A stretch of DNA of 64,000 bases from Deltaproteobacteria bacterium (GTDB lineage Bacteria > Myxococcota > JACRCW01): contig JACRCW010000085.1 of NCBI GenBank assembly GCA_016218805.1, positions 1 to 64,000 of the forward strand. The letters are read 5' to 3'. A model generated the notes under the pieces. The model did not search any database. It was not told where the DNA came from and saw nothing but the letters and a program-made list of their open reading frames with translations. Positions 12,645 through 64,000 of this stretch are shown here, in pieces. Positions within the stretch are counted from its first letter, which is position 1. The number at the start of each line of letters is the position of its first letter. The position numbers were made by a program, and so were the translations under genes.

Positions 12645-12706
12645 GCCGCCACCTTCCTGCTAGGTGGCCGCCGCCCGCAAGCCGCGGGACGGGAGGAGCC
12701 CTCACC

Positions 12707-14364: not shown

Positions 14365-14365
14365 C

Positions 14366-46087: not shown

Positions 46088-47519
46088 CGCGGTAGGTGGA
46101 CAGCCGCGCACCGGGATCGTTCCAACATGCCTCGGGTGAGCCCTGCTTGCGGCACAACTGCGCCAGGAAGTCACCCGCCGCCGGCATGTCTTCCCACACT
46201 TCCGGGAGGAACGTGGAGCGCCGCTCACCCAGTTCAATGATGAGTCCGGGCCGCGTGCGCTGCAGCAGCGCGGGCACAGTCTCCCCCGGCGGCAGTACCA
46301 GCGGGCGCGGTTCCTCCAACACGGAGATGGAGAGGTCCACGCCGCCAAGCTCGTCCTTGCCGACGGGAGGGAACCGGCGGTCGTTCACGGCCGCGTTGAT
46401 GGCGTTCCGCGCGACGACGTCCACCAGCGGTCCCGCCGCGACGAGGCTGCCGATGCAGCCGCGCAGCTGCCCCCGCTGCTTCAACGTGACAAACGCCCCG
46501 CGCGGCCGGCCCAGCCGCGGGTACCGTGCGGCCAGCGCTCCCGGCACGACGAGGTCCGTCCCCGCCCGCACCTTCTCCTCCACCGCGCGCCGCGCCACCG
46601 TGAGCAGCGCGGCCTGCTCGTCACTGCCCAGTTCAAACACGTCCTCGTACGCCACCGCGCCGTAGCCCACCACGCGCGTCCGGTCCCCGCTCACGTCACC
46701 GGAGTTGGCGTACGTGATGAGCCGCGGGGTCAGCTCCAACAGCGCCGCCAACTCCGTCATCACCAGCAGTACGTGCGTACCATCCGTGTCGCAGTGCGCC
46801 ACGTCGTCTGCGTTCATGCGGACCAGCGCGTCCAGGCACGCGCGGTCACGCGCCACCGCGTCGTCGTAGGGATGGTAGTGGGACAGATCCACGGAGAAGA
46901 CGAACAGCGTCCCGGGGGTTGCCAGCGTTCGCAGCGCCGCCGCCAGAACGGCGGTGTCACGCCGCGCCAGGCGACCGACAATCAACGGAATCAACTCAAA
47001 TGGCCTTCCGTTGTGCACCTGCAGGAGCGGCAGGGCCACTTCCACCATGTGCATGGTGTGTGCGGCCGGCACATCCACAAACGGGCCCTTTCCAACAAGC
47101 GCCGCCGCCGACGGTGACACGCGCACCTCACCGCCGGGCCAGGCGTAGTGTGTGGCGGTATCCACAGAAACCCCGGCAAAGTCCGCCGCACCGTTGTGAT
47201 TGGCGGCAATGACCACCACGCGCTCAAACCCCGGCTCCACCTGCCGCAATGCGGCCGCCGCCACCCTGCCCGAGTAGACGTACCCGGCATGCGGCACCAG
47301 GACCACGCGGGCGGGCGCGCCGATCACGCGCGACGACGACGCCAGGAAGTCCGCGGCGGCAGCGCGCAGGCGGTCCGGCTCCGCGGGGTAGAACGTCCCG
47401 GCCACCGTTGGCGCGCGCACCACGCGCCGCGCCGGCGCCGCGGCCGCATCCGGGCTGACCGGCCCCGCGCGCGTGCACGCCAGCACCACAACCGCCGCGC
47501 CCCACGCGGACGCCTTCAC
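46053..47519 (-). CDS. amrB: AmmeMemoRadiSam protein B (Memo) fused to protein A (AMMECR1)
   Basis: VAGTFYP, PHAGYVYSG, DLSHY, YANSGD, VVGY, then GAFVTL...LRGCIG...DRRFPP and TFLPEVW. Confidence 0.92.
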   Translation of the reverse strand: MKASAWGAAVVVLACTRAGPVSPDAAAAPARRVVRAPTVAGTFYPAEPDRLRAAAADFLASSSRVIGAPARVVLVPHAGYVYSGRVAAAALRQVEPGFERVVVIAANHNGAADFAGVSVDTATHYAWPGGEVRVSPSAAALVGKGPFVDVPAAHTMHMVEVALPLLQVHNGRPFELIPLIVGRLARRDTAVLAAALRTLATPGTLFVFSVDLSHYHPYDDAVARDRACLDALVRMNADDVAHCDTDGTHVLLVMTELAALLELTPRLITYANSGDVSGDRTRVVGYGAVAYEDVFELGSDEQAALLTVARRAVEEKVRAGTDLVVPGALAARYPRLGRPRGAFVTLKQRGQLRGCIGSLVAAGPLVDVVARNAINAAVNDRRFPPVGKDELGGVDLSISVLEEPRPLVLPPGETVPALLQRTRPGLIIELGERRSTFLPEVWEDMPAAGDFLAQLCRKQGSPEACWNDPGARLSTYRAQHFAENRAGH

Positions 47520-48673
47520 GAAAACACCCCGGGGACCACTTCGCCGCACGGGCAGCGCCCGTCCACCAGCGCGGACGACGTCACTTCAAAGCCGCGCCGT
47601 TCAATCAGCAGGCGCCCGTCCCGCGGGCAGCGCGTGTGGTTGGCATCATGCCCCGGCACGTTACCCAGGTAGACAAACAGGAGTCCCGCATCCAACGCCG
47701 CCGCCCGCGCGCGCTCCATGGCGGCCACCGGCGTGGGCGGAAGGTGCTCCAACCGGTGCGCGGGGCGGAAGCGGAGGATGTGCACGGGCGTCCCCGGCCC
47801 CAGGTGCGCCGCCACCCAGCGGCCAAAGCGGCCAATCTCCGCAATGTCATCTGACAGCGTGGGCACCATGAGGAAGCTCACCTCCACCCAGACGCCTTCC
47901 TCCCGCAGCACCTCCAGCGTGCGCAGCACGGGCGCCAGGCGCGCGCCGGAGACGTCACGGTAGAAGGACTCGCGGAAGGCCTTCACGTCCAGCGTCACCG
48001 CGTCAATGACGCGGCACAGTTCGCGCAGCGGCTGTTCGTTCACGTAGCCCGCCGTCACCAGCACACTGCGGATGCCACGGTCCCGCGCCAGCGACGCCGT
48101 GTCCCGCACGTACTCCCAGGTCACCAGCGGTTCCGTGTACGTGAACGCCAGCGCGTTGACGTCCCGCCCGGCGCACAGCGCCACCAGGTCCTCCGGAAAC
48201 AGCGTGTGCTGCACCACGTCAGACGGCCGGGATTGCGAGATTTCCCAATTCTGGCAATTGAGGCACCGCAGGTTGCAGCCGCCCGTCGCCACGGAGAGGA
48301 TGGGTGTCCGGGGGAGCCAGTGATACAGCGGTTTCTTTTCAATGGGATCCAGCGCCACACTGCACAGGTTCCCGTAGCCCAGCGTGTGCAGCGCACCGTC
48401 TTTCACCGCGCGCACGCGGCAGTACCCGCGGTCATCCTCCCCCAGCACGCACAGGTGCGGACACAGCGTGCACTGCACCAGCCCACCGCGCGCCACCGCG
48501 TGCGCCGCCGGGCGTGCGTACGCATCCAGCGGCGCCGCCGCGTCCTGGCGGAAACCCATCTCCAGCGGCCGGTTCCCGTCACCCAGTACAAACTGGTCCA
48601 CCGCCCGCTTGCCCAGCGCGGCCGCGCCACACCCGGCGACAACCTGCTTGATGAAGCGCCTTCTTGACCCCAC
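47516..48673 (-). CDS. amrS: AmmeMemoRadiSam radical SAM enzyme
   Basis: CTLCPHLC, DPIEKKPLYH, GCNLRCLNCQNWEISQ and VYLGNV. Confidence 0.93.
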   Translation of the reverse strand: MGSRRRFIKQVVAGCGAAALGKRAVDQFVLGDGNRPLEMGFRQDAAAPLDAYARPAAHAVARGGLVQCTLCPHLCVLGEDDRGYCRVRAVKDGALHTLGYGNLCSVALDPIEKKPLYHWLPRTPILSVATGGCNLRCLNCQNWEISQSRPSDVVQHTLFPEDLVALCAGRDVNALAFTYTEPLVTWEYVRDTASLARDRGIRSVLVTAGYVNEQPLRELCRVIDAVTLDVKAFRESFYRDVSGARLAPVLRTLEVLREEGVWVEVSFLMVPTLSDDIAEIGRFGRWVAAHLGPGTPVHILRFRPAHRLEHLPPTPVAAMERARAAALDAGLLFVYLGNVPGHDANHTRCPRDGRLLIERRGFEVTSSALVDGRCPCGEVVPGVFS

Positions 48674-48680
48674 GCGCCGC

Positions 48681-49727
48681 TCAGCCAACGCCCGCCAGGT
48701 TGGGGAACAGGGTTTCGCGGTAATACATCGCGTGCAGCTTGCCCACGCCGCGGCGCACGGCGTCGTCCGCGTGCGTGACGCTGGCCGCGGTATCCATCGC
48801 CGTGTCAGCCGCATGCATGGCGCCCTCCATGAACCGGCCAAACAGCGCCATGGGCGTGCGCGCCACCAGGTCCGCGCCGAGCGACAACATGGCGCGGCCC
48901 AGCCGCATGGGCGGAACAAATCCCGCGATGTGCTCAGCGAACTGCGTGGGCTCGCGCGTCAGGTAGAAGCCCTCCATGGTGGCGCTGCCGTCGTCATGCC
49001 GCGTGCAACGGAAGCGCACCGCGCCGTCCGTGGTGCCGGGAAAGGGGCCGCTCTTGCGGTCCGGGTTCAGGAAGTGCGCCGTGAACTCCACCTGGTCCGG
49101 GCGCTCGCGCACCGACGAGCGCTCCACCACCAGGTCCATGCCACCCGGCGGCACCAACCCGTCCAGCGGCTTGAGCACGCGCACGTCACCAATGCGCGCC
49201 ACGAACTTCTCCACCGACAGGTCCGCGAACGGATCAAACCGCGCGCCGGGCGCCGTGCGCGCCCAACCGTCCGCGCGCTTGACCGCCAGCACCTCCGTGG
49301 TGGGTCCGTTGCCACCGCCGCGTGCCGCCCCCGCAAAGAACCCGTGCAGGAAACGCGCAAGCACATCCGGGGCCGCATTGGGAATTCTTACCGCCTGGTC
49401 CACCACCCACGCGCGCCCGCCGTGGGCATCCTGCGCCACGAACGCGCGGCTGCCCGGGTCCACCTCCACCGGATCCGTCATCGGGCGCAGGTCCTCCGCC
49501 CGGTTGCCGGGGACCAGGAACATGGGGGCGCGCTCCGCGGCCTCTACCAGCCGCGCCAAATCCCGCGCTTCGGAGATGGTGGCCGGTGCCACCGTGGGGG
49601 CGTGGACGCCGTCCCAGGTGGCCGCGCGGGGTCCGGCCCGGCGCGGCGCGTTGGCCTGCGGGGCCGGGTCTTCCGGGGCAACCACGACGGGACGGGCAGG
49701 TGCGGCAGGACCGGTGATCCTTGGCAT
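48681..49727 (-). CDS. Hypothetical protein (possibly START/SRPBCC-like)
   Basis: Long ORF with normal composition ending 7 nt before amrS. Start approximate and fold guess weak. Confidence 0.55.
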   Translation of the reverse strand: MPRITGPAAPARPVVVAPEDPAPQANAPRRAGPRAATWDGVHAPTVAPATISEARDLARLVEAAERAPMFLVPGNRAEDLRPMTDPVEVDPGSRAFVAQDAHGGRAWVVDQAVRIPNAAPDVLARFLHGFFAGAARGGGNGPTTEVLAVKRADGWARTAPGARFDPFADLSVEKFVARIGDVRVLKPLDGLVPPGGMDLVVERSSVRERPDQVEFTAHFLNPDRKSGPFPGTTDGAVRFRCTRHDDGSATMEGFYLTREPTQFAEHIAGFVPPMRLGRAMLSLGADLVARTPMALFGRFMEGAMHAADTAMDTAASVTHADDAVRRGVGKLHAMYYRETLFPNLAGVG

Positions 49728-49771: not shown

Positions 49772-51412
49772 TCACGAGCAGCGTTCGCCCCGCCCGTTGA
49801 TCATGCCGTAGCTCTTGAGCTTGCGGTACAGCGTGGCCGATCCGATACGGAGCTGCGCAGCGGTGCGCGTCTGATTGCCTCCATTGGCCCGCAACGCCGC
49901 GATGACGTGCTCCTTCTCGACCTCCTCGAGCGCCCGGACGGGTCCCCCGGGCTCCGATGCATGCGGCACGACCTGGCGGACCTCCTCGGGGAGGTCCATC
50001 AGTTCCACGCGGGATCCCGTGGCCAGCGCCACGGCCCGTTCCATGGCGTTCTCCAGTTCGCGCACGTTTCCGGGCCATTCATACCGCAGCAGCTGGTCCG
50101 CGGCGGCGGGCGCCAGCCCGGTGATGTGGCGCCGCGCGCGGTGCACCGCGTCCGCCAGCAGCGCGCGCGCCAACGGGAGGACGTCCTCCCGGCGCTCGCG
50201 CAGGGGCGGCACATGCAGCTCCACCACATTGAGGCGGTAATACAGGTCCTGCCGAAACGTGCCCTCCGCCACGGCGTGTGCCAGGTCCCGGTTGGTGGAC
50301 GCCAGCACCCGCACGTCCATGTGCCGGCTCTGGTTCTCGCCCACGCGGCGGACCTCGCGTTCCTGCAGGGCACGCAGCAGCTTCACCTGCATGGACAGGG
50401 AGATTTCGCCAATTTCGTCCAGCAGCAGCGTGCCGCCTCCGGCCGCCTCAAACAGCCCGGCCCGGTCATGCGTGGCGCCGGTGAATGCGCCGCGGACATG
50501 ACCGAACAACTCGCTTTCCAGCAGCGCATCCGGAATGGCCCCGCAATTCACGGCAATGAATGTCCGGCCCGCACGGATGGACCCGTCGTGCACCAAGCGC
50601 GCAATGCGCTCTTTTCCTGAGCCGCTCTCGCCGGTGATGAGGACGGTGGAATCCACGCGGGCAACCCGGCCGGCCAGTTCCACCACCCGCTGCATGGCCC
50701 GGCTGCGGGACACGGTGCCCGGCGAAGCCGCCACGGTGGGCGCCACCCGCCCCCGCGCGTGCAGTTTCTGGTCTGCCGTCTGGATCGTCTCCATGACGTG
50801 GTGCAGCGTCCCATTCAGGCTCGCTTTGAGACGGGCGGGATCCAACACGCGGAGGTCGTCTGCGTGTTCGTCACCCCACGCCGCGCGCGTGCGCCCCACC
50901 AGGCGGCAGGCGGGATCCCCGCGGCCCGCGCAACGGTCTTCCAGGACCAGCACGTCGTCACCCAACGTCCGGCTCAGGTATCCGCTGGCCAGACCGCACA
51001 GGGTCCAGCACACCGGCGCGTCCGCGCGGCCAAAGTGCAACTGGTGCTGTTCCGCCTCGTAGGACTCCATGAGCGTGACGCCGTCGCGCGCCAGCGGCCC
51101 CTCACTCCCCGCGTCAACGCGGAACAGCCCCTGCAGCGCCTGAAAGCGCGTGCACGCGCGCAGCCGCTCGTCGTCACTGTCCCACTTGAACGCGGAACCC
51201 AGCACGTCCGCCATGCGCCAGCCGTGCGCAAACCCAAACTGGGTGAGCGCCGTCCGGGCCGCCAACACACCCACGGCGTCCACCAGGAACTTCCGCAGGA
51301 TCCCCATTGCCACCGCATCCATGAGGAGCGCGCGTTGGCCCGCAAAACGGAGTGGCCCGCCCTCCGGATCCCACGCCAACAGTTCCCCATGGTCCAGGTC
51401 TTCTGCACGCAT
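49772..51412 (-). CDS. XylR/DmpR-type sigma-54 activator (XylR_N + V4R)
   Basis: [28 protein letters not shown]...[15 protein letters not shown] and TLYRKL. Confidence 0.92.
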
Positions 51413-51788: not shown

Positions 51789-52007
51789 ATGGGACGCTCC
51801 AACCAATTCGCAGCGTTGTTCGTGTTTGTGTCGTTGACCACGGCGTGCGCGTGGACCACGGGTCCCGCGTCCGGCGCGCCCGCGCAGGTGACCCCGGGCA
51901 GACCGGTTCCGCCCGGGTCGGCAGGCAGCGCGTGCTCGCCGCGGCGCCTGGGCACCACGGACCCGCACGCCATGGCGCTGTGCCAGGTGCTGCGTCACCG
52001 GTACTGA
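51789..52007 (+). CDS. Possible small exported peptide (72 aa)
   Basis: GAGG RBS, hydrophobic N-terminus and two further Cys. Unverified. Confidence 0.35.
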   Translation: MGRSNQFAALFVFVSLTTACAWTTGPASGAPAQVTPGRPVPPGSAGSACSPRRLGTTDPHAMALCQVLRHRY

Positions 52008-52124: not shown

Positions 52125-55100
52125 ATGCGATACGATCTGAACAAGCCGGGTTGTGGTCGTGCTGCATCAACCGCGGCGTTCCTTGTGGCAGTGCTTGCCG
52201 GGTCCAACGCCGCCGCGGAAATCAAGGTGACGGTGATGGACGAAACGGGAGCGCTGGTTACCAACGGCTTCCGTTGGTTGCTGGAAGAGGACAACAGCTA
52301 CGGCGCGCGGCCGGGGGTGCTGTCACCCAGTGCTCCGCTGGGAGCGGAGCCCGGTGACCCGAGCTTCACGCTGGGCGTCAACATCCACCGCAGTCACGCG
52401 CCCACCGTCTGTGCGGGTGATACCGCGCCCGCCAACGGCGTGGTCACGTTTCCTCCCACGCCCGCCGTGCTGGCGGGACCGGGAGCGGCGGTGGCCACCA
52501 TAGATACCGACAATTGCCCGGGTTATGACCCGGCCCGGAAATACATGGTTTCCGTCCTGCCCTGGCACACTTCCCCCACGGGCACGCCGACGACGGCGCA
52601 GACCGGGTACACCCAGAGCGGGCGCAACGTGGCGGCCGGACAGACCGCGGTCACCATTGTGGTGCACACCTTTGCGGTCCCCACGGCGCAAATCACCGTT
52701 ATTGTCTTTGCGGATACGCAGCCCATCAACTCCGCCTATGACCAGCCAGCGGAGCTGGGACTGCCCGGATTTGACCTCATTCTGAGTGACCCCATTGACA
52801 AGGTCATGCAGGACGCGTTTGCCAACCCGGTGGGGACCACCTACCAGTTCCGCTACACCACGCCGGACGGCCGCCCCGCGGATGCCACCGGCGCGGCAGT
52901 GCCCCAGGGAGGCCCCATCCAGTTTGTCCTGGATGAAGAGGGCGCCCCGGTGGTGGCGTGGCTGGGTGACGGCTCCCTGCGGACCTGCCCGGGCACCACC
53001 AAGCCGGTCGGGTCCTACACGGGCTATGAACGCGCCAATTGCATTGACCCCTATACGCTGCAGCCGCTGGCGGCCGGCCAGGCGGTCATCCGCTATCTCG
53101 TCGGCGGCAAGTACACCATTGAGGCGCAGCCGCCGCCGTCGGACCCGGACTGGATCCTCACAAGCACGCTGGAGGGCACGCGCGGCGTTGACACGTGGCC
53201 GCGTGCGTCCGAGCCCCGCTACATGATCACGATGGGCAACCTGAACTGGTTGACTTGGTTTGGCTTTGTGAAGCCGGTGAACAACCTGGCCAGCGTGCCC
53301 AATCCCAGCAACGCTGCGCTGAGCTCCATTTCAGGTCAATTGGTCTATGCGCACGACATGCACCCGCCTCTGTCCCCGGGCCTGACGCCCGGGCTGCCGG
53401 TGCCCTACGGCTACGTGGGCATCAACAATCTCAACGGTAACGACGAGCAGGTCTACACCGCCGCCACCGACCCGGCCACGGGCGCGTTCAGCGTGGACGG
53501 GGTGGTGCCGGGCACCTACCAGTTGGTCTTTTGGGACAAGCAGCTCAACGCAATCATTGATTTCCGGACCCTGGTGGTGGCGCCGGGGCAGAACATCGCC
53601 CTGGGGCCGGTTTCCGTGTACGGCTGGTTTGGCCGCTACATTGGCTCCGTGTTCATGGACAACAACCGCAACGGCTTCCGGGACCCATCTGATCCGGGGA
53701 TTCCCAGCGTTCCGGTCAACCTGCACTTCACGGATGGTTCCGTGTACGGCAACGGCTTCACGGATGCGGACGGGAACTTCAGCTTCCCGCAGGTGTTCCC
53801 GTTCTGGCGCTTCCTGGTGGCGGACGTGGATTTCAACCGCTTTCGCCCCACGGGGCTGACGGCGTGGGTGGACAACGGCGGGCCGTTGCCGCTCAACGCG
53901 CTGGGCGCGCAGGGCATCAACCCGCAGCACCAGCCGGACGGCCGCAGCTTCCGGACACAGCGCGGCAAGGTGGTCACGCAGGCCATGATGGCCATGCAGG
54001 ACATGACCAACCGCATTGACTGGGGAAAGACGCGCTGGAACCCCGGCGAAAACGGCGGCATTCACGGCATCATCAACTACGCCCTCACGCGCACGGAAGA
54101 GGACCCGTCCACCAGCGCGCTGGATCCCTGGGAGCCCGGCATTCCGCGGGTGACCGTGGTGCTGCACCGCGCGGTGCGGGACTGCGCGCGGGCCGGCGCC
54201 TCCGTGGAGAATGACTGCTGGGTGACGGATGACGTCCCGCCGTTCCCGCTGCTCACCACGTCCGACTCCTGGGACGACCAGACGCCGACGGGCTGCGTGG
54301 GTGCGGACGGCGACGCGAGCCAGGGACCGGTGCTGTGGGCGCTGCCGGAGATCGTCAACGGGTTTGCCATCCCGCGTTGCGCGGAGACGTTCCGCATGTG
54401 GAACCAGGTCCGCCCGGGCGTCATGGATGGCAGCTATTGGTTCCAGACCCTGCCGGACGGCAGCAGCCTGCCCGTCGGGAATTACATTGTCCAGGTGGTG
54501 CCACCGCCCGGATACGAGGTGATTCAGTGGGGTGACCGGGACATTGACATTGGTGATCCCAAAATCCCCTTCCAGACGCAGACCCCGCCGTGCGTGGGCG
54601 CCGCGTATGACATCCCGCCGTACCTGCGGATGTTCCCGGACCAGATCAATGAGACGGACCTGCCCGGGGCGTGGGATGCAAACGGAAACTGGACCTATCC
54701 GCGCGCGGCCGCGTGCGACATGAAGCTGATTGGCCTCAACCCGGGCGCCAACCCGCAGGTGGATTTCAACCTGTTCACGTGGGTGCCCAAGGCTGGCCGC
54801 ATCTGGGGCACGGTGTGGAATGACCTGCTGTTGGAGTTTGACCCGCGCAGCCCCAATGCCAGCGGGAACTTTGGCGTGCCGTGGATCCCCGTCGCGGTGA
54901 AGGACTGGTCCGGCACGGAGGTGGCGCGCTTCTACACGGACCAATGGGGCCATTTTGATGGCCTGGTGCCCACCAACTACGACATTGTTCCCCCCATGCC
55001 GCTGGGCCTGGCGCTGGCCATGTACACCATCGCCCCCAATGACCCTGGCCCCATCCGCGACCCTGACCCGACCTCGCCGACATACGGCAAGCTCATCACG

Positions 55101-57395
55101 GACCCGTGGTTCAATCCGGAATACAGCCAGGCGGTGGGGGTGGTGCGCGAAGCCAACTGGATGTTCTACTCCGGCCGCACCACGTTCATTGACACCATTG
55201 TGATGCCGGTGGCCGCCTTTGTGAGCAACCGGATGCCCATCAACTGTGACTACGCGGACAATACGCCGGAAATCCGTGAGGTCAGTGCGGCGGTCATCCC
55301 GCAGACACCAGGCGGCTACTCCATCACCATCACGGCCGTGGGCGATGTGACGGGGCCCAACCCCGCCTTTACGCCGGACAATCCCGCGGAACCGCCGGTC
55401 ATCACCTACCGCCATGATTTTGGCCCCGGTGGCACGGTGAGCGTGGGCGGCACGGTGCTCCCGCCCGCCAACGTGAGCTGGGATGTCAGCGGCATGGCCA
55501 TCACGGCGCTCATTCCCAACGGCGTGTCCGGGCAGCTGGTGGTCACGCGCGGTGACAACGGGCGTTCCTCCACGGTGGGCGTGACCCTGCACGCGGACAA
55601 TCCCTCCGTTCCCGTCATTCCGGTTGTTCCGCCGCCGGGTGGCTGCCAGGGGCTCGCCTGCAGCGTCATCCAACCGGCCATTGATGCGGCACCCAACGGC
55701 GCCATTCTGCTGCTGGGGCCCGGCCGTTACCAGGAGAACGTCAACCTCTGGAAGCCTCTCACGCTGCAGGGCCTGGGTCCCGCCATCACCGTCATTGACG
55801 GGCTGGCGGCGTGGGAGAACCAGGAACTCAAAGCCGCGCAATTCGCGCAGGCGGTGGGAATGGCGGCGTCGGGGACCATCGGACTGGTGCCCAACCAGGC
55901 GTCGGACTTCACCATGCAGCAGGGCTCCGGAATCCTGGTGGCCGGCTGTGACCCCGCGGCCTGCCCGGACGGCAATGATTTCTCGCTGTTCTCCGCGCGG
56001 ATTGACGGCGTGATGGTCACTGGCGTGCCGGACTCCGGCGGCATCCTGGTCAATGGCTACGCGCCCAACCTGGCCATCACCAACAATGACATCTTTCTCA
56101 ACCAGGGGAGCATTGGCGGTGGCATCCGCGTGGGCGAGCCCGCGCTGGTGGGCCCAGCCAACCCGACGGGCAGCAGCTTCAACCCCAACCTGCTCATTGA
56201 CCACAACCGCATCAGCATGAACGGCTCCGTGTTCAGCGGCGGCGGCGGCGTGGCCATCTACGGCGGCGCGGACAATTACGTTGTTTCCAACAACATGATC
56301 TGCGGCAACTTCTCCGCGCAGTACGGCGGCGGCATCAGCCACTTTGGCCTGAGCCACAACGGCGTCATCTCCGGCAATGTGCTCGTTTCCAACGAGTCCT
56401 TTGACGAGGGCGGCGCCATCCACCTGGGCGGCGATCTTGCGCCCGGTGCGTCTGCCATCTCACTGGGGGCGGGTTCCGTGCTGGTGAGCCGCAACCTCAT
56501 CCAGGGCAACAAGGCCGGGGATGATGGCGGCGGCATCCGCACGCGCATGTTCAACGGGCTGGACGTGGCCATGAATCCCGGCAATCCCGGCGCGTGGTTC
56601 GGACTGGATGTCATGGACAACATGGTGGTGAACAACTCCAGCGCGGACCTGGGTGGCGGCATGGCGTTGGATGACACCGTGAAGGTCACGGCCATCGGGA
56701 ACACGTTTGTGCACAATGACAGCACCGCCACCAGCTCGGACTCGTTTGGCGGCCCGTGCACGGAGGACACGCCCATGGGCCAGGTCTGTCCTCCCGGCGA
56801 AATTGCCGGCGGCCTGGTCACCTCCATTCCCGCGGTGGGCGGCATCTCCACTGCGGCGCACAGCGCACCCCTGGCGGCGGCGCTGGCCGCGCCGGGCGGT
56901 CACTGCGCCACGGTCTCAGACGCCCTGTGCGCGCCGTATTCCAACCCGCTGCTGGTGAATGACATCATCTGGCAGAACCGCTCCTTCTATTGGGACGCGG
57001 CCGCCAACAACAACCTGGGCGCGCTGTTGCCGTCGCCGGGCCGCACGTTCTGGGACCTGGCGGTGTACGGCACGGCCACGCCGCAGCAGATGAATCCCAT
57101 CTATTCGCTGCTCACGGACGGCGTCGGTGCGGCGCCGGATTCCACCAACGTGATCGGCCAGGACCCGCAGCTGACCAGCCCGTACCTGAACGTTTACGTT
57201 GCCACCTCCAAGGGCTCCACGCTGGGGAACTTTGTGGTGGCCACCTTTGGTCCCAATGGCGTGGTGGGTGACCATCACCTGCTGGCGGGATCACCGGCCA
57301 TTGGTGCGGGCAGCGGCATTCCGCCCGCCACCATGACGGACTTTGACGGACAGGACCGGGTGGCTCCAGTGGACATTGGAGCGGACCAGCACTGA
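52125..57395 (+). CDS. Very large secreted protein: SdrD-B/Cna-B-like modules, IPT/TIG-like domain and right-handed beta-helix
   Basis: Signal peptide, GSVFMDNNRNG..D..D.GI, TDADGNF, IQPAIDAA...GPGRYQEN, repeated GGG[IV] and terminal DFDGQDR...DIGAD. Confidence 0.8.
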   Translation: MRYDLNKPGCGRAASTAAFLVAVLAGSNAAAEIKVTVMDETGALVTNGFRWLLEEDNSYGARPGVLSPSAPLGAEPGDPSFTLGVNIHRSHAPTVCAGDTAPANGVVTFPPTPAVLAGPGAAVATIDTDNCPGYDPARKYMVSVLPWHTSPTGTPTTAQTGYTQSGRNVAAGQTAVTIVVHTFAVPTAQITVIVFADTQPINSAYDQPAELGLPGFDLILSDPIDKVMQDAFANPVGTTYQFRYTTPDGRPADATGAAVPQGGPIQFVLDEEGAPVVAWLGDGSLRTCPGTTKPVGSYTGYERANCIDPYTLQPLAAGQAVIRYLVGGKYTIEAQPPPSDPDWILTSTLEGTRGVDTWPRASEPRYMITMGNLNWLTWFGFVKPVNNLASVPNPSNAALSSISGQLVYAHDMHPPLSPGLTPGLPVPYGYVGINNLNGNDEQVYTAATDPATGAFSVDGVVPGTYQLVFWDKQLNAIIDFRTLVVAPGQNIALGPVSVYGWFGRYIGSVFMDNNRNGFRDPSDPGIPSVPVNLHFTDGSVYGNGFTDADGNFSFPQVFPFWRFLVADVDFNRFRPTGLTAWVDNGGPLPLNALGAQGINPQHQPDGRSFRTQRGKVVTQAMMAMQDMTNRIDWGKTRWNPGENGGIHGIINYALTRTEEDPSTSALDPWEPGIPRVTVVLHRAVRDCARAGASVENDCWVTDDVPPFPLLTTSDSWDDQTPTGCVGADGDASQGPVLWALPEIVNGFAIPRCAETFRMWNQVRPGVMDGSYWFQTLPDGSSLPVGNYIVQVVPPPGYEVIQWGDRDIDIGDPKIPFQTQTPPCVGAAYDIPPYLRMFPDQINETDLPGAWDANGNWTYPRAAACDMKLIGLNPGANPQVDFNLFTWVPKAGRIWGTVWNDLLLEFDPRSPNASGNFGVPWIPVAVKDWSGTEVARFYTDQWGHFDGLVPTNYDIVPPMPLGLALAMYTIAPNDPGPIRDPDPTSPTYGKLITDPWFNPEYSQAVGVVREANWMFYSGRTTFIDTIVMPVAAFVSNRMPINCDYADNTPEIREVSAAVIPQTPGGYSITITAVGDVTGPNPAFTPDNPAEPPVITYRHDFGPGGTVSVGGTVLPPANVSWDVSGMAITALIPNGVSGQLVVTRGDNGRSSTVGVTLHADNPSVPVIPVVPPPGGCQGLACSVIQPAIDAAPNGAILLLGPGRYQENVNLWKPLTLQGLGPAITVIDGLAAWENQELKAAQFAQAVGMAASGTIGLVPNQASDFTMQQGSGILVAGCDPAACPDGNDFSLFSARIDGVMVTGVPDSGGILVNGYAPNLAITNNDIFLNQGSIGGGIRVGEPALVGPANPTGSSFNPNLLIDHNRISMNGSVFSGGGGVAIYGGADNYVVSNNMICGNFSAQYGGGISHFGLSHNGVISGNVLVSNESFDEGGAIHLGGDLAPGASAISLGAGSVLVSRNLIQGNKAGDDGGGIRTRMFNGLDVAMNPGNPGAWFGLDVMDNMVVNNSSADLGGGMALDDTVKVTAIGNTFVHNDSTATSSDSFGGPCTEDTPMGQVCPPGEIAGGLVTSIPAVGGISTAAHSAPLAAALAAPGGHCATVSDALCAPYSNPLLVNDIIWQNRSFYWDAAANNNLGALLPSPGRTFWDLAVYGTATPQQMNPIYSLLTDGVGAAPDSTNVIGQDPQLTSPYLNVYVATSKGSTLGNFVVATFGPNGVVGDHHLLAGSPAIGAGSGIPPATMTDFDGQDRVAPVDIGADQH

Positions 57396-57453
57396 GGAGC
57401 GCCGTGACGCCCGCCGGCTGCGGCCGGCGTGGCGCACGGTGCAAGGAGCGAAC

Positions 57454-58914
57454 ATGCAGACCTCCATTCGATGGACCATGCGGTTGGCACCGGTGGTGGC
57501 GGCGTTGCTGACGCCTCCGGTGGCGCGTGCAGCCGTCTTCATCCAGTGCCCCGCGCCGCTGCTCACCCAAAACGCCACGGGCGGATCATGTGGCGCGGGG
57601 CCCTGCTACCTGGACCCCAAGAACCCCGCTGCATCCTCTGACCCGGGATGCGTGGACCCTGAGGTGGTGGACCCGGTCACGGGAAAGCCCACCTTCTTTG
57701 ACACGTGCAAGGTCCGCCTGGACCCGGTGACGGGGCAGCCCTCCGGCGAAACCACGGACCCCACCATTGTGTGCCGCTCCATCACCTGCGGCGACGGACA
57801 CGTGAACATGGCGGACGGTTCCGACATGTACGTGTTTGGATTCCGGGACGTGACCAATGCGCCGGAATCACTGCTGGCGGGCGCGGGCTTCTTCCTGGGG
57901 GAGGATGGCTCGCTCACCGGCGGGGCGGAATTTGCCGCGCCCACGTTGGTGGCCCGTGTGGGGCAGCGCCTGTACCTGACGCTGACCAACGTGGGGTTCC
58001 GTGAGCGGCCGGACCTGGGTGACCCGCACACGGTGCATTTCCATGGCTTCCCCAACGCGGCGCCCGTGTTTGACGGCGAGCCCATGTCGTCCTTTGGACT
58101 CAACATGGGCGCCAGCCTCACGTACTTCTACGACAACCAGTACGCGGGCACGTACATGTGGCACTGCCACGTGGAAGCGGCGGAGCACATGCAGATGGGA
58201 ATGCTGGGAAACCTCTACATCCTCCCCGCGCAGGACGGCCAGGCGGTGACCCACGGAGGACAGACGTACACGCGCTTTGCGTACGATGACTGCCCCACGC
58301 TGGGGACGCTCCCGCTGGGCACCCCGGACCCCATGTGCGGGACCACCGGATACGACGTCATGTACTTCCTGCAGCAGGCGTCCTTTGACCCGGTATTCCA
58401 CTACAACGACCAGACCTACCAGAAGCTGGACTTTGCCAACATGCGGGACACCTACGCCATGCTCAACGGCCGCGGGTACCCGGACACGGTCAACCCCGGC
58501 GTGATGGTCAATTCCGCGGGTGCGCCCTCCCAGCCATTGCCGGCCATTCCGTTCACGGTGGACGCCCAGGGCGTGCGCGCGCCACTGGCCATTGCCCAGG
58601 GACAGCGGTTGCTGCTGCACCTGTCCAGCCTGGCCACGGAGTCCTTCTTCACGGTGACGGTGCTGGGCATCCCCATGCGCATTGTTGGTCAAGGGGCGCA
58701 ATTGCTCCGCGGCCCCACGGGGATCAACACGTCCTATGTCACCGGCTCGGTCACGCTGTCTGGCGGCGAAGCGGTGGACGTCATCCTGGACACCACGGGC
58801 GTTCCGCCGGGCACGTATTTCCTTTACACGACCAATCTCAACCACCTGAGCAACGACGCGGAGGATTTCGGTGGAATGATGACCGAAATCGTCGTGGCGA
58901 GCGCAGCACAGTGA
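57454..58914 (+). CDS. Two-domain multicopper-oxidase-like subunit A (T1 site + HxH in domain 1)
   Basis: HTVHFHG and WHCHVEAAEHMQMGM in domain 1. No such motifs in domain 2. Confidence 0.88.
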   Translation: MQTSIRWTMRLAPVVAALLTPPVARAAVFIQCPAPLLTQNATGGSCGAGPCYLDPKNPAASSDPGCVDPEVVDPVTGKPTFFDTCKVRLDPVTGQPSGETTDPTIVCRSITCGDGHVNMADGSDMYVFGFRDVTNAPESLLAGAGFFLGEDGSLTGGAEFAAPTLVARVGQRLYLTLTNVGFRERPDLGDPHTVHFHGFPNAAPVFDGEPMSSFGLNMGASLTYFYDNQYAGTYMWHCHVEAAEHMQMGMLGNLYILPAQDGQAVTHGGQTYTRFAYDDCPTLGTLPLGTPDPMCGTTGYDVMYFLQQASFDPVFHYNDQTYQKLDFANMRDTYAMLNGRGYPDTVNPGVMVNSAGAPSQPLPAIPFTVDAQGVRAPLAIAQGQRLLLHLSSLATESFFTVTVLGIPMRIVGQGAQLLRGPTGINTSYVTGSVTLSGGEAVDVILDTTGVPPGTYFLYTTNLNHLSNDAEDFGGMMTEIVVASAAQ

Positions 58915-58926
58915 GGGGAGGGCGTC

Positions 58927-60285
58927 ATGATTCAGACCACGCAGCAGGGACGCCGGTTGTTCATCCTACTTTTGGGGGCATTGCTGGTGCTGCCCGCGGC
59001 GCCGGGGAGGGCCACGGTGCTGGGCGCCACCGGCCGCACGTTCACGCTGACCGCGCGGGCGGACACCATCAGCACGGGTGACGGCGACAGCATGTGGATG
59101 TGGGGCCTGGGGCTGGGCGGCGGGCGCATGCAGTACCCGGGTCCCACGTTGATTGTCACGGAGGGTGATTCCATCACGGTCATCCTGCGCAACCAGTTGC
59201 CGGTTCCGGTGTCACTGGTATTTCCCGGTCATTCGGTGACTGCCAGCGGGGGGACCCAGGGCATGCTCACACGCGAGGTCCCGGCGGCCCGCCCGGGCGT
59301 CCCGGGCCAGGCGGTGGTGTACCGGTTCACGGCCACGCATCCGGGAACGTTCAGCTACCACAGCGGCACGCTCCCGGACCTGGAGGTGGAGATGGGCCTG
59401 GTGGGGGCGCTGATTGTGCGGCCACGCGGTTCTCCCAACCAGGCATACAATGACCCCGCCTCCGCGTTTGACCGTGAATTCCTCTACTTGGTGACGGAAG
59501 CCGACCCGGTGCTGCACCAGCAGCTGGCGTTCAGCTGCTTGTCCGCCGCGGGTTGTGACCTGGCTTCCGTGGACCTCACGCGCCGCCATCCCACGGACTG
59601 GTTTGTGAACGGGCGGACGTTCCCCGACACGATGATGGACCCATTTGTGGCCTATCTCCCCACGCAGCCGTACAACTGCGCGCCCATGTTCCACCCCGGC
59701 GACCGCGTGTTGATACGCTGGGTGGCGGGTGGCGCGGATTTGCACCCATTCCACACGCACGGGCAGAACCACCTGGTCATTGCGCGGGATGGGCGCCTGT
59801 TGCGGACCCCCGGCAGCGCGGCGCCGGACCTGGCCGTGTCCGACTACACAACGACCAACGTGCCGGGCGAGACGGTGGACGCGTTGTGGGGACCGTGGAC
59901 GGGCGAGCGGCTGGGCTGGGACGTCTACGGCACCCAGGACATCAACCCGCACACCTGCAACGCGGCGCCCGGGAGCAACTTTGACCCCGTCAGCCGCGAG
60001 TACTGTCCGGACCATGACAAACCGCTGCCGGTGACGCTGCCCAGCCAGAGCGACGTGACCTACGGCGTGGTGGGCGTGGGGATGTGGGGCGGCACGCCGT
60101 ACCTGGGGGTCTCCGGGGACGTACCGCCCATCAATCCTGCATCCAGCACGCAGATGAACGTCGTGGGGGGGATCTCGTTCATGTGGCACTCGCACGCTGA
60201 ACGCGAGCTGACCACCAACAACATCTTCATCGGCGGCATGGCGACCATGGCGCTGATCGTGCCGGTGGGAACCGCCATCCCGTGA
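58927..60285 (+). CDS. Two-domain multicopper-oxidase-like subunit B (HxH pair in domain 2 only)
   Basis: Domain 1 degenerate (SLVFPG, YHSG). Domain 2 has HPFHTHG and WHSH. Confidence 0.86.
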   Translation: MIQTTQQGRRLFILLLGALLVLPAAPGRATVLGATGRTFTLTARADTISTGDGDSMWMWGLGLGGGRMQYPGPTLIVTEGDSITVILRNQLPVPVSLVFPGHSVTASGGTQGMLTREVPAARPGVPGQAVVYRFTATHPGTFSYHSGTLPDLEVEMGLVGALIVRPRGSPNQAYNDPASAFDREFLYLVTEADPVLHQQLAFSCLSAAGCDLASVDLTRRHPTDWFVNGRTFPDTMMDPFVAYLPTQPYNCAPMFHPGDRVLIRWVAGGADLHPFHTHGQNHLVIARDGRLLRTPGSAAPDLAVSDYTTTNVPGETVDALWGPWTGERLGWDVYGTQDINPHTCNAAPGSNFDPVSREYCPDHDKPLPVTLPSQSDVTYGVVGVGMWGGTPYLGVSGDVPPINPASSTQMNVVGGISFMWHSHAERELTTNNIFIGGMATMALIVPVGTAIP

Positions 60286-60297
60286 AGGGGGGAAGCC

Positions 60298-61833
60298 ATG
60301 TCACTCAATCACCGATTGTCGCGCTTTCATTCACGCACTTGGGTTGGTTGCCTCACCTGCCTGGGCCTGGTGGCCTGCGGCAACCCGGAGTCCCGGGCGC
60401 CTGCTGCGGCGGGCACCCCGGAACGCGGGCCGGCGGCGGCGGCGGCTCCATCGCTGGACGCACCGGTGCTGCCCACCGTGGAGGTCTACCTGCGCGCCGA
60501 GGCGTTCGACCTCCCGGCCATGGCGTTCAACAATCCCGCGCCCATCCGCATGTGGGGTTTTGCGGAATGCAAGGAGGCGTTCACGTCCTGCGGGCAGCCC
60601 ACGGTGCCGGGCCCCGCGCTGGGCGTGGAGGAGGGCGGCACCCTGACCATCCACGTCATCAACGGCCTTGCCGGGCCGTACGTGGAGCCGGTCTCCGTGG
60701 TCATCCCCGGCCAGGCGGCCACCATGAATCCAGTCTGGTTTGATCCCGTTACCGGGTCGGTGACGGCCACGGGCGCCCGTCCGGCGGGGGACTACACGTC
60801 GCGGGTCCGCTCGTTCACGGCGGAGACGCCGCCGGATGGCGCCACGGTGACGTCCTACTCGTGGACCGGATTGCGGGCCGGCACCTACCTCTACCAGTCC
60901 GGGAGCCACCCCGCCGTGCAGATGCAGATGGGCCTGTTCGGCGCGTTGCTGGTGTATCCGGTCAACAGCGCGCTGGCGTACCCGGATCCATCCACGGCTT
61001 TTGATGCTGAGGTTACGCTGCTCTTCAGCGAAATCGACCCCGTCCTCCACGACGCCATTGCCGCCGGGCTGTACGGTTCGCAGCCTCCCTCGCCACCGCC
61101 CGCTGGGTGGCTCACCAGCACCATTGAGTACCGCCCGCAGTACTTCTTCATCAACGGGCAGTCCTTCCGTCCGGCCATGCCCGTGCTGCCTGCGGGCGTG
61201 CGTGGCGGGCGCCTGTTGATCCGCTTCTTGAATGCGGGCCTTTCCAACCGGGTGCCTGCGGTGCAGGGTCCGTACATGTCCGTGATTGCGGAGGATGGGC
61301 ACCCGTACATGGTGACGTCCTCCACCGGCTCGGTGTTGCCGGCGCCGCGCGAGCAGTACTCCGTGCTGCTCCCCGCGGGAAAGACCGTGGACGCCATCCT
61401 GGTGCCGGCGGCCGCGGGCGATATCCCCGTTTACGACCGGCGCTTTGGTCTCTCCAACGCGGGGACGTCTCCGGGCGGGATGCTGGTTTACCTGGCGGTT
61501 GCCGGTACGGCTCCCTCCCAGCAGCCGCTGCGCCTGTCCACCACGCGCCTGGTCTTCAACACGGCCGGACTGCGGGCGGTGACGGTGCGGAATACCGGCA
61601 TTTCCGCGCGCGTGATCACGGGGGCGGAAATTGTGGGCGGGGGGGCCAACCCGGCACCGGATGCGTTCTCCGTGTCCAACACGGCTCCGGTCACCCTGGC
61701 AGGGGGTTCATCCGCCACCTTCCTGGTGTCCTTCAACCCCACCACCACCAACCCCACGGCGCTGCTGAACTTCAGCACCAATGACCCCCTCACCCCATTG
61801 CTGACGGTCCGGTTGGTCGGCATCCGCCGTTGA
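60298..61833 (+). CDS. Multicopper-oxidase-like lipoprotein subunit C (no canonical Cu ligands) with C-terminal Ig-like domain
   Basis: Lipobox LVAC, PGP.L.V.EG, SVVIPGQ, GTYLYQSG...MGLFGAL, FING and RFLNAG. Confidence 0.8.
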   Translation: MSLNHRLSRFHSRTWVGCLTCLGLVACGNPESRAPAAAGTPERGPAAAAAPSLDAPVLPTVEVYLRAEAFDLPAMAFNNPAPIRMWGFAECKEAFTSCGQPTVPGPALGVEEGGTLTIHVINGLAGPYVEPVSVVIPGQAATMNPVWFDPVTGSVTATGARPAGDYTSRVRSFTAETPPDGATVTSYSWTGLRAGTYLYQSGSHPAVQMQMGLFGALLVYPVNSALAYPDPSTAFDAEVTLLFSEIDPVLHDAIAAGLYGSQPPSPPPAGWLTSTIEYRPQYFFINGQSFRPAMPVLPAGVRGGRLLIRFLNAGLSNRVPAVQGPYMSVIAEDGHPYMVTSSTGSVLPAPREQYSVLLPAGKTVDAILVPAAAGDIPVYDRRFGLSNAGTSPGGMLVYLAVAGTAPSQQPLRLSTTRLVFNTAGLRAVTVRNTGISARVITGAEIVGGGANPAPDAFSVSNTAPVTLAGGSSATFLVSFNPTTTNPTALLNFSTNDPLTPLLTVRLVGIRR

Positions 61834-61852
61834 CGGCGCCGGGAGGTGCACC

Positions 61853-62314
61853 ATGAGCGCGGGACGCAACAGCAGCGTGTGGTGGGTGGCCTGGTGCGCG
61901 GCCGGCGTGCTGCTCGGCCAGCAGGTTGCAGCGGCGGAACGTGCGGTCCGGGCCCCGGAGGCCCGAGCCACTCGCGCCGTCAGCGAAACCTGGGGAATTG
62001 AACCGGTGGCGGTCCGCACCTCCGGCGGAGGGCGCATGGTGGATTTTCGCTACCGCGTGGTGGACGCGCAGAAAGCCCGTCAGTTGTTTGACCGCAAGCT
62101 GAAACCGGTCCTGCGGGACCACCGGAGCCGCGCGCAGCTGGCCATGCCGGAGGACACCAAGCTTGGCGGCCTGCGTTCCAGCCCGCGCGCACAGCCGGAG
62201 AACGGCAAGGTCTATTACGTGCTGTTCGCCAACCCCAACAAGACCATTGCCCGGGGCGCCAAGGTTGACGTCGTCATGGGTGACTGCGTGCTGGCCAACC
62301 TGGTGGTGCAATAG
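61853..62314 (+). CDS. Exported hypothetical protein
   Basis: GGAGG RBS, signal peptide, and position within the operon. Confidence 0.7.
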   Translation: MSAGRNSSVWWVAWCAAGVLLGQQVAAAERAVRAPEARATRAVSETWGIEPVAVRTSGGGRMVDFRYRVVDAQKARQLFDRKLKPVLRDHRSRAQLAMPEDTKLGGLRSSPRAQPENGKVYYVLFANPNKTIARGAKVDVVMGDCVLANLVVQ

Positions 62315-62324
62315 CGGGGAAATC

Positions 62325-63641
62325 ATGCACCACCTCCGCCGCGGTCCAGGTCTGGCCGCCCTCGCCCTTCTTGGCTGCGGGATGCCGGACCCCGCCCGGG
62401 AAGCCGCGGAAATGCGGGTGGTCATCCGGATGGCGGACCAGGCCGTGCCACCGGGACCGGAGCCCGGTCACGCGGCGGCCGCCCTCAGGAGCCAGGCGGA
62501 GGTCACGCAGGCTGGATTGCGGGCCTTCCTGCGTGCGCACGGCGGCCGGCGGCTGACGCCCCTGCCCATCATCAACGGTGTGTCCGCGTTCATTCCGCAC
62601 GGCCTGCTGCCCGCAGTGTCCCGGTTTCCGGGTGTTGACCGGGTGGTGGCGGACCCCGGCTGGCGGTTCCCCGCCGCCACCCCGGCGGGGACGGGATCGC
62701 CGGGATGGAATCTGCAGTCGGTGCACGCGGACGCGCTGTGGGCGCGCGGCTTCCGCGGCCAGGGCGTGGTGGCGGCCAACATGGATACCGGCGTGGACGT
62801 GCGCCACGTGGACGTGGCGGACCGCTGGCGCGGCGGTGACAACAGCTGGTTTGACCCGTTCACGGACAGCGTTGAGCCGTATGACCCCATTGGTCACGGC
62901 ACACAGACCCTGGGCATCATGCTGGGCGGCAGCGGTTTCGGGGTCGCGCCGGGCGCGCAATGGATTGCGGCAAGGATCTATGATGATTCCGGGCATTCTT
63001 CATTGACGGTGGTTCACCAGGCGTTCTTCTGGCTGCTGGACCCGGACGGCGATCCCGCGACGCCGGACGCTCCGCGGGTGGTCAACGCTTCGTGGGCCAT
63101 TGGTGATTCCGTAGGTTGCGACCTGGAGTTCATGCCGGACGTCCAGCGGCTCACCTCCGCGGGGATCCTGGTGGTGTTTCCCGCGGGCAATGCGGGGCCA
63201 CGGGAAGGCTCGGGGGGGAGCCCGGCTGACAATCCCGGCTCTTTCGCCGTCGCGGCCGTGGATCGCGACGGACGCGTGGCGTCGTTCAGCAGTCGCGGCC
63301 CGTCGGCCTGCCATGACGGCGTCTTTCCGCATGTAGCCGCTCCGGGCATGGACATTGTCACGCTGGATGTCTCGCTTCCCGGGATTCCGCAGTACGCGGT
63401 GGTTGCCGGGAGTTCATTTGCGGCGCCGCATGTGGCGGGCGCCGCCGCGCTGTTGCTGTCCGCGTTTCCCTCCCTTTCTCCCGCCCAGCTCCGCTGGGCC
63501 CTGACTGCGGGCGCGCGGGATGGGGACGCCCCCGGGCCTGACGCGCGTGTCGGGCACGGGATTCTTGACGTTGCCGCTTCCCACGTTGCGCTGCAGCGCG
63601 CTGTGGCTCGCGGCTACTTGCTGCACCCACCCACCGACTGA
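62325..63641 (+). CDS. S8 subtilisin-family serine protease (lipoprotein)
   Basis: Lipobox LLGC, MDTG, GHGT, AGN and GSSFAAPHVAG. Confidence 0.92.
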   Translation: MHHLRRGPGLAALALLGCGMPDPAREAAEMRVVIRMADQAVPPGPEPGHAAAALRSQAEVTQAGLRAFLRAHGGRRLTPLPIINGVSAFIPHGLLPAVSRFPGVDRVVADPGWRFPAATPAGTGSPGWNLQSVHADALWARGFRGQGVVAANMDTGVDVRHVDVADRWRGGDNSWFDPFTDSVEPYDPIGHGTQTLGIMLGGSGFGVAPGAQWIAARIYDDSGHSSLTVVHQAFFWLLDPDGDPATPDAPRVVNASWAIGDSVGCDLEFMPDVQRLTSAGILVVFPAGNAGPREGSGGSPADNPGSFAVAAVDRDGRVASFSSRGPSACHDGVFPHVAAPGMDIVTLDVSLPGIPQYAVVAGSSFAAPHVAGAAALLLSAFPSLSPAQLRWALTAGARDGDAPGPDARVGHGILDVAASHVALQRAVARGYLLHPPTD

Positions 63642-63652
63642 CCGGAGGCACC

Positions 63653-64000
63653 ATGCACCCCGTCCGCTTCTCCACGTTTGCCGTTGTGCTTGCCCTGCTT
63701 GCGTTGCCGGCGTCCGCAGCGGAGGGTGCCCCGCCGTCGGAGCACTGCCCGCACCACGCGGCACCTGCGGCCGCCACGCCCTACGCCCGCTCCCTTCACA
63801 GCTACAGGCCGCCGGACGTGACCCTGGTGGACCAGGACGGCCGCCGCGTGCCGCTTTCGGCCGCGCTGCGCACGGACGTTCCGGTGGCGGTGAACTTCAT
63901 CTTCACCACGTGCACCACGGTGTGCCCGGTGATGAGCGCCACGTTCGCCGGCGTGCGGCGCCGGCTGGGCGCGGACGGCGAACGGCTGCAAATGGTCTCT
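63653..64000 (+). CDS. SCO family copper chaperone (3'-truncated)
   Basis: GGAGG RBS, signal peptide, LVDQDGR and NFIFTTCTTVCP (CxxxC). Read directly from the + strand. Confidence 0.88.
   Translation, partial: MHPVRFSTFAVVLALLALPASAAEGAPPSEHCPHHAAPAAATPYARSLHSYRPPDVTLVDQDGRRVPLSAALRTDVPVAVNFIFTTCTTVCPVMSATFAGVRRRLGADGERLQMVS

Follow-up and report, generated by a model that had tools for sequence, protein, structure and literature searches.

A putative surface copper oxidase with one active site shared by two gene products, encoded beside a giant beta-helix protein in a deltaproteobacterial operon

What is built by an operon that places three multicopper oxidase (MCO)-like genes between the gene of a giant secreted protein and those of a protease and a copper chaperone? 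This question was raised by the end of a 64,000-nucleotide (nt) stretch of DNA, here called the window, which comprises positions 1 to 64000 of contig JACRCW010000085.1 in the 92% complete, high-GC genome of a Deltaproteobacteria bacterium (Myxococcota; assembly GCA_016218805.1). The list of open reading frames (ORFs) holds seven plus-strand genes that run in one direction from position 52125 to beyond the window end, with successive gaps of 58, 12, 12, 19, 10 and 11 nt and with purine-rich stretches preceding their starts. This layout bore out an earlier, sequence-only reading of the locus, which had counted at least seven close-set, co-directional genes and had expected the operon to continue past the window. 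The seventh gene indeed crosses the window end, and 4 nt behind it starts an eighth, which closes the operon and encodes a cytochrome that we call MofC-like by its description in section 13 of PMC5566968. The signal peptides reported earlier were assessed by eye, without a predictor, and the N-termini look Sec-type. Most likely, the eight genes build one exported copper enzyme whose O2-reducing site is shared by two subunits and which is carried on the giant protein.

All three MCO chains (MCO1, MCO2 and MCO3) contain two cupredoxin domains, are recognized by the Pfam Cu-oxidase models and are paralogues of each other (hhalign, 99.8 to 100%; MCO3 to MCO1, 99.8%; MCO3 to MCO2, 100%). The best PDB matches of the MCO1 profile were the type-C enzymes 3G5W (E value of 1e-19) and 2ZWN. 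Domain 1 of MCO1 carries a type-1 copper site (H192, C238, H245 and M250) together with one half of a trinuclear site (H195, H197, H237 and H239), each residue being present in 100% of 85 sequences, while its domain 2 holds zero copper ligands. The other trinuclear half is found in domain 2 of MCO2 (H276, H278, H421 and H423, conserved in 97 to 100% of 79 sequences); MCO2 has no type-1 Cys, its H273 is vestigial, and a single His of its domain 1 survives in roughly half of the family members. In MCO3, alignment by hhalign to MCO1 and MCO2 showed every ligand position of both domains to be replaced. A type-1 site thus occurs in MCO1 only, and no single gene supplies all eight trinuclear histidines (four come from MCO1, four from MCO2 and none from MCO3). 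The same partition was seen over 70 to 85 sequences per subunit, with ligand conservation of 97 to 100%. As judged from these alignments, MCO1 to MCO3 belong to the type-C lineage and jointly supply exactly one type-1 copper and one trinuclear cluster. The sequence-only reading was right in naming three MCO-like chains, but MCO3 is free of ligands, so these are not three oxidases; the reading had overlooked that MCO1 and MCO2 divide the ligands, that MCO3 is copper free and that a MofC-like cytochrome follows. A further His, in a D-P-x-x-H motif, opens domain 2 of all three paralogues (MCO1 H316, 100%; MCO2 H197, 95%; MCO3 H251, 93%), even that of copper-free MCO3, and is a possible extra metal or assembly site. 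Two loci (L166 and L168) represent a divergent MCO1 sub-lineage with HCHVEDTEHVHMGM; both lie in frameshifted pieces, due to either assembly error or decay.

Known type-C two-domain MCOs are homotrimers with three sites, and each of their trinuclear clusters lies where domain 1 of a chain abuts domain 2 of its neighbour. Given this geometry, the sole complete site would be the one at which MCO1 domain 1 faces MCO2 domain 2. By analogy with these trimers, we consider it highly likely that MCO1 to MCO3 assemble into a closed ring of six domains, with this contact as the only place at which the O2-reducing cluster forms and with MCO3 as a structural pseudo-subunit that would fit as the third, copper-free side. 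The comparison with the type-C enzymes (3G5W, 2ZWN and 3GDC) extends to a type-1 copper in domain 1, the HxH/HCH motifs of domain 1, the HxxHxH/HxH motifs of domain 2 and the C-terminal GGM strand, all of which are matched; in contrast to them, our system draws the eight trinuclear histidines from two gene products, has a third chain devoid of them and carries large partners. The MnxG-type MCO is described in PMC3600357 as one polypeptide that holds its type-1 copper in domain 2 and its cluster at the boundary of domains 2 and 3. Assuming a 1:1:1 ring, our system shares with it one type-1 and one trinuclear site per six domains. However, it consists of three chains and has its type-1 copper in an odd domain (domain 1), and the one-site reduction therefore looks independent of MnxG. 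In the OmpB/MofA group, the oxidases are flanked by a MofC-like cytochrome and SCO (PMC5566968, section 13). The Geobacter OmpB and Leptothrix MofA clusters thus have an extracellular MCO, a MofC-like cytochrome-plus-binding-domain protein and SCO in common with ours, as well as a peptidyl-prolyl isomerase (PPIase) in the version from Cupriavidus metallidurans CH34, but their MCO is the product of a single large gene, whereas three genes for proteins of 452 to 511 amino acids (aa) are found here. An identity as NirK was rejected, because TIGR02376 scored 20.9 and 43 bits against a cut-off of 296 and the full set of eight histidines is present, not the mononuclear type-2 site alone that marks NirK. 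By the tested features, the cluster stands outside the MnxG, OmpB/MofA, NirK and homotrimeric type-C families, and it is predicted to work like a one-site six-domain oxidase. No description of a split or heterotrimeric MCO was found in the literature searched, which lay mostly outside subscription papers.

If the three chains form one enzyme with the giant protein, the genes should travel together, and they do. We collected the best 80 of at least 562 genome matches to MCO1, which come from many phyla (the best 80 lean toward close relatives), and kept the 48 loci with at least 6 kb of upstream and 8 kb of downstream sequence; 32 loci with shorter flanks were dropped. The giant, MCO2 and MCO3 genes stand beside MCO1 in 48 of 48 loci, the gene for the small 153-aa protein in 46 and the S8 protease gene in 34, while SCO and the cytochrome were each found in at least 22 (limited by a 10-kb flank). 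The reverse search, seeded with the giant, gave 71 metagenome loci; 25 of them extend 4.5 kb to both sides, and 24 of these contain all three MCOs. Among 251 genomes of the host phylum, the giant is present in 17, and MCO1 in 15 of those and none elsewhere; of the two giant-bearing genomes scored as MCO1 negative, one has a divergent MCO1, and in the other the contig breaks off, MCO2 and MCO3 being located on a different contig. The small protein was found in all 17 giant genomes, plus two weak extra matches. The earlier proposal of a dedicated operon for an exported copper oxidase, with the giant as a conserved partner of the MCO trio, therefore held, whereas its S8 component was retained at only part of the loci. 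In addition, the giant and the oxidase chains are naturally fused: the giant precedes MCO1 in one chain in 11 of the best 80 loci and follows MCO3 in 2 of them, as well as in two plasmid records, from C. metallidurans CH34 and Paraburkholderia (fusion layouts were inspected in 18 chosen loci). With such fusions to MCO1 or MCO3 at 13 of the 80 loci, the giant is probably a subunit. From the strict co-occurrence and the fusions, we regard it as likely that the giant and the 153-aa protein belong to the same particle and that the giant, with its rigid beta-sandwich body and its beta-helix, holds the oxidase against a solid or polymeric surface. One 3053-aa chain (P0219) joins a different S8 domain (29% identity), a giant and MCO1; in four loci (L038, L050, L115 and L125), a second giant gene stands in tandem upstream of the cluster, and genome G138 contains both cluster layouts.

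The two parts of the giant were modeled with AlphaFold2. Residues 31 to 1050 form one compact body (pLDDT 85.8, pTM 0.87) of Cna-B/SdrD-B-type beta-sandwiches, as indicated by Pfam SdrD_B and by fold matches. A fold search with this body retrieved single Cna-B/transthyretin-like domains (best Z score of 11.2) and barely probed the residues past about 640; for residues 640 to 1040, Atlas returned SdrD-B-type clusters only. In residues 1040 to 1756, a small beta-sandwich packs on a right-handed parallel beta-helix that spans about residues 1160 to 1680 (pLDDT 92.1, pTM 0.94). The tail is choice-of-anchor Q-like (NF041518, 28 bits; cut-off, 25). The SdrD-B and beta-helix assignments of the sequence-only reading were thus recovered by Pfam and AlphaFold2, respectively. 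An IPT domain is probable, although the IPT/TIG assignment drew just weak fold matches to CGTase, and the supposed abundance of Cys was rejected: there are 21 Cys in 1756 aa (1.2%), of which C724, C752, C823 and C864 alone are kept (87 to 97% of 62 sequences). Conserved polar residues of the giant are Y1385, H1406, D1480, D1517, D1532, R1619 and D1644 (92 to 100%). The 153-aa protein matched no family in Pfam, NCBIfam or PDB, and its Atlas clusters are unnamed.

A relative of the cluster is present in the iron oxidizer Sideroxydans lithotrophicus ES-1. A cluster of the Slit_1812-1818 type appears in He et al. 2017 (PMC5566968, text of Fig. 4C), and Keffer et al. 2025 (PMC12016527) reported that Slit_1812-1818 are raised on magnetite, with Slit_1816 changing most, and listed similar clusters in Paraburkholderia, Ralstonia and Anaeromyxobacter. 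Matched by eye, the published peptides fit the window proteins, with Slit_1818 as MCO1, Slit_1817 as MCO2, Slit_1815 as the small protein, Slit_1812 as the cytochrome and Slit_1816 (2873 aa) as MCO3 fused to the giant; Slit_1813 is SCO by the label in PMC12016527 alone. In the comparison of late fresh magnetite with late Fe(II)-citrate cultures, the log2 change was 7.7 for the giant fusion, 5.5 for both MCO2 and the small protein, 4.2 for the cytochrome and 3.5 for MCO1, and the intensity-based absolute quantification (iBAQ) values of the giant fusion, MCO2 and the small protein were similar (column identity inferred; PMC12016527). Because the ES-1 peptides match MCO1, MCO2, MCO3, the giant, the small protein and the cytochrome of the window, the two clusters can be assigned to the same family with a different layout, as far as peptide matches tell: in the window, the giant has a gene of its own, which leads the operon and is distinct from that of MCO3, S8 is present, and a Slit_1814-type (LolA-like) gene is absent. 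The enzyme is uncharacterised in both PMC12016527 and PMC5566968, the accessible parts of which treat both MCOs as having typical motifs and do not mention a split. Whether the cluster equals a characterised system had been put forward as one of the points that could overturn the sequence-only reading; the family has appeared in publications (He 2017; Keffer 2025) without being characterised, and the window cluster is a new layout member of it.

Taken together, we consider it slightly more probable than not that the operon encodes one exported, surface-held copper oxidase complex and its assembly kit. In such a complex, the subunits would cross the membrane by Sec and fold in the periplasm, as is usual for these families; copper would be loaded by SCO and perhaps also by the His-rich MofC-like cytochrome, S8 might act as an optional trimming or quality-control step, and the complex would either leave by type II secretion or stay lipid-tethered. 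As its most likely reaction, the complex would remove one electron from Fe(II) or Mn(II) at the surface of a mineral or matrix and couple this step to the reduction of O2. To Fe(II) or Mn(II) oxidation at the surface we give somewhat less than an even chance; what is left after the organic-substrate and O2-scavenging readings discussed below goes to other substrates, such as halides. A role in surface conditioning, metal handling or attachment is more likely than one in respiration, because no energy is conserved from electrons that are passed to O2 at the surface.

Several observations weigh against this interpretation. The ring and its interfaces are predicted from the geometry of type-C trimers, and co-occurrence and fusion prove linkage, not contact, among loci that are non-independent as kin. 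One of the 25 giant-seeded loci (L138, with a full-length giant at 9758-15100) has no MCO within 8 to 10 kb. The cluster is also found in hosts not known for metal oxidation (Burkholderiaceae, Planctomycetota, Desulfatibacillum and Thermodesulfovibrio), and MtrB/PioB were unmatched in the host genome, at its completeness of 92%. In ES-1, the iBAQ value of MCO1 was about tenfold below the others (column identity again inferred; PMC12016527), and Slit_1812-1818 were low in early magnetite cultures, in which MtoA was already made (PMC12016527, Table 1). As the induction was late and not early, it could be due to growth phase, starvation or the state of the biofilm, and substrate is confounded with phase or surface growth.

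The same complex could instead act on an organic substrate, i.e., as a laccase-like enzyme that oxidizes or cross-links phenolics, humics or matrix polymers held in the beta-helix groove and thereby serves to harden biofilms or to attack polymers. In vitro, type-C enzymes do behave as laccases, and many of the hosts are heterotrophs. The C-terminal fold of the giant is closest to polysaccharide-binding beta-helices, the best match being the alginate epimerase/lyase 8ja4 (Z score of 26.8; root mean square deviation of 2.6; 319 residues aligned); however, non-enzymes such as NosD (Z score of 22.4) and adhesins are matched too, as are phage tailspikes, and likeness in beta-helix fold by itself shows no function. 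The Tyr-Asp-His pattern expected for an AlgE/AlgG-like enzyme was not found in the beta-helix. A divergent regulator of the XylR/V4R type does stand beside the operon, but its XylR N-domain was unmatched at the other loci, and the published proteome shows expression of the cluster on magnetite in ES-1, which is an autotroph. We rate an organic substrate as unlikely.

A second question concerned the S8 protease, which the sequence-only reading had called a lipoprotein and had cast as the maturase of one subunit, by analogy to OzpA and OmcZ. The Peptidase_S8 assignment was upheld, and the catalytic region is conserved (D154, H191 and S364); the lipobox turned out to be local, with 1 of 38 homologues fitting the pattern. 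If S8 were an obligatory maturase with one subunit as its target, comparable to OzpA for OmcZ, it would be expected to belong to the cluster, and at an E value of <=1e-60 S8 was found in 11 of the 17 cluster genomes and in 0 of the 234 others among the 251 genomes of the host phylum, in all 11 cases next to the small-protein gene. Distances between S8 sequences also follow those of the other cluster genes (Spearman coefficients of 0.51 to 0.79), and the S8 clade is dedicated to the cluster. On the other hand, S8 is missing from 14 of 48 loci, with about nine gains or losses on the MCO1 tree (a quick IQ-TREE result), and it is absent from the fused MCO3-giant layout, as well as from CH34, Paraburkholderia and the ES-1 gene list; this layout is accompanied by LolA-like proteins, PPIase and a type II secretion cluster. 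A function of S8 in cutting polyproteins was likewise rejected: loci with giant-MCO1 fusions possess it no more often than loci do overall (3 of 7 versus 34 of 48), and no link between its presence and the length of the MCO3 tail was seen. An OzpA-like maturation is thus not a universal step, for S8 is missing at many loci, absent from the MCO3-giant layout and unenriched in fusions, and an obligatory role is quite improbable. The likeness to the Geobacter pair lies in a subtilase gene beside the gene of an exported redox protein and is one by description, not by sequence comparison; in contrast to OzpA, the protease is dispensable here. No substrate or cleavage site of S8 was identified in our analysis, and S8 is most readily interpreted as a protease for optional trimming or quality control.

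The remaining genes were examined for copper supply and export. Pfam SCO1-SenC confirmed the chaperone call, and CxxxC and His169 are present in 26 of 26 sequences. As the SCO family is known for copper loading, the earlier suggestion that this protein loads the oxidase is likely. The cytochrome binds its heme through C67, C70, H71 and M131, with the axial Met131 in 25 of 25 sequences, and outside the heme domain it carries four conserved His (H165, H218, H258 and H465; 88 to 96% of 25), Met182 and two Cys, which on the basis of their conservation are a possible copper site. Export by Tat was rejected, since the twin-arginine pattern RRxF/L is almost absent (0 to 3 members per gene among 20 to 76 family members). 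Lipobox patterns sit on different subunits depending on the host, namely, on MCO3 (LVAC27) and S8 in this genome and on the small protein elsewhere (20 of 63 homologues). In CH34 (L013 7341-17336 and 29371-34316), a second gsp (type II secretion) cluster lies directly upstream, and the downstream genes encode two LolA-like proteins, the cytochrome, SCO, PPIase and a lytic transglycosylase; gsp genes adjoin several other loci, and the transglycosylase adjoins 7. From their position, Rmet_4700-4702 would belong to the CH34 cluster; a search of the supplements of PMC2864759, apart from file 13, did not recover the locus tags of that cluster. The host genome of the window contains a secretin and heme-copper oxidases.

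The cytochrome could also be viewed as an electron donor. In an outward O2 scavenger, electrons would pass from the MofC-like cytochrome to the type-1 copper and on to O2, yielding water and protecting microaerophiles or anaerobes, with the giant as a mere anchor. Many hosts are indeed anaerobic or microaerophilic, and the heme-c protein with its axial Met is conserved; however, the cytochrome was recovered in at least 22 of 48 loci (flank limited), obligate aerobes carry the cluster too, and a conserved partner of 1700 aa is hard to justify for such a task; we rate this explanation as very unlikely. The reverse route, an energy-conserving oxidase that delivers electrons from solid Fe(II) via the type-1 copper and the MofC-like cytochrome to the respiratory chain, would suit the ES-1 proteomics, the role in solid Fe(II) oxidation suggested in PMC12016527 and the many Gallionellaceae loci, but the complete trinuclear ligand set makes O2 an on-board sink, most hosts are not lithotrophs and no porin gene recurs in the neighbourhood clusters. 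We rate it as the least probable of these alternatives.

The coordinates of the operon are compiled in Table 1. With respect to its control, no sigma-54 motif scoring 8/10 or higher was found upstream of the operon in the window, and a sigma-54 promoter was rejected for this locus; motifs scoring at least 9/10 occur upstream in 6 of 50 loci, compared to 3 of 250 shuffles. A sigma-70 scan of the locus gave 0 sites. The regulator mentioned above, a sigma-54 activator with XylR_N and V4R domains of the aromatic-sensing type, is encoded divergently at 49772-51409 (minus strand), 700 nt upstream of the operon. XylR-type control was rejected as a family trait, as the N-domain is without a match in other cluster loci; neighbouring regulators differ between loci, with NarL-type regulators in 20. 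A short ORF of 72 codons precedes the giant (51789-52007, plus strand); its leader is purine rich, and its N-terminus resembles a signal peptide. Neither this ORF nor the next gene downstream of the operon is conserved in the other loci compared. Farther upstream, a fused Memo-AMMECR1 gene lies beside a radical SAM gene (46053-48919, minus strand), a pair that we take to be an AmmeMemoRadiSam-type cluster. Contigs C54, C89, C36 and C165 of G000 contain open frames with 14 to 33 CxxCH motifs, which may represent multiheme cytochromes or Cys-rich repeats.

TABLE 1 Genes and ligand block of the operon (window positions unless given as contig positions)
Feature	Position	Strand	Basis
Giant secreted protein, 1756 aa	52125..57395	+	Pfam SdrD_B; AlphaFold2; fold matches; NF041518
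MCO1, two-domain cupredoxin, 486 aa	57454..58914	+	Pfam Cu-oxidase; ligand alignment
MCO1 ligand block, type 1 and trinuclear half	58027..58203	+	Alignment to 3G5W and 2ZWN domain 1
MCO2, two-domain cupredoxin, 452 aa	58927..60285	+	Pfam Cu-oxidase; motif match to 3G5W domain 2
MCO3, copper-free paralogue, 511 aa, Ig-like tail	60298..61833	+	Pfam Cu-oxidase; hhalign
Small exported protein, 153 aa, no known family	61853..62314	+	Conserved cluster position
S8 subtilase, cluster-specific clade, accessory	62325..63641	+	PF00082 (Peptidase_S8)
SCO1/SenC copper chaperone, 206 aa	63653..64273 (window ends 64000)	+	Pfam SCO1-SenC
Monoheme cytochrome c with His-rich C-terminal domain, MofC-like, 524 aa	contig 64278-65852	+	Pfam cytochrome c

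The cluster is common and is tied by proteomics to mineral iron oxidation, yet it is still without a name, a structure or an activity. Annotators count two or three oxidases in it, but the ligands permit one shared site only, and expression of single genes would therefore fail and mislead. If the proposed arrangement is true, a homotrimeric two-domain oxidase has been caught differentiating into a one-site six-domain enzyme, which is the route proposed for ceruloplasmin and MnxG. Only tentatively, and against the balance of probability, we would go further and suggest a widespread class of surface oxidases: one-site heterotrimeric type-C rings, an independent three-gene counterpart of MnxG, mounted on a platform of 180 kDa that is rigid and senses mineral or matrix surfaces through its beta-helix, with the D-P-x-x-H His as extra metal sites and the cytochrome as a redox-linked copper carrier, by which many phyla may oxidize solid-phase Fe(II) or Mn(II). 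The assignment to a single complex opens a direct test of microbial action on Fe(II) or Mn(II) in solid form, and the carriers of the cluster include a harmless laboratory strain, C. metallidurans CH34.

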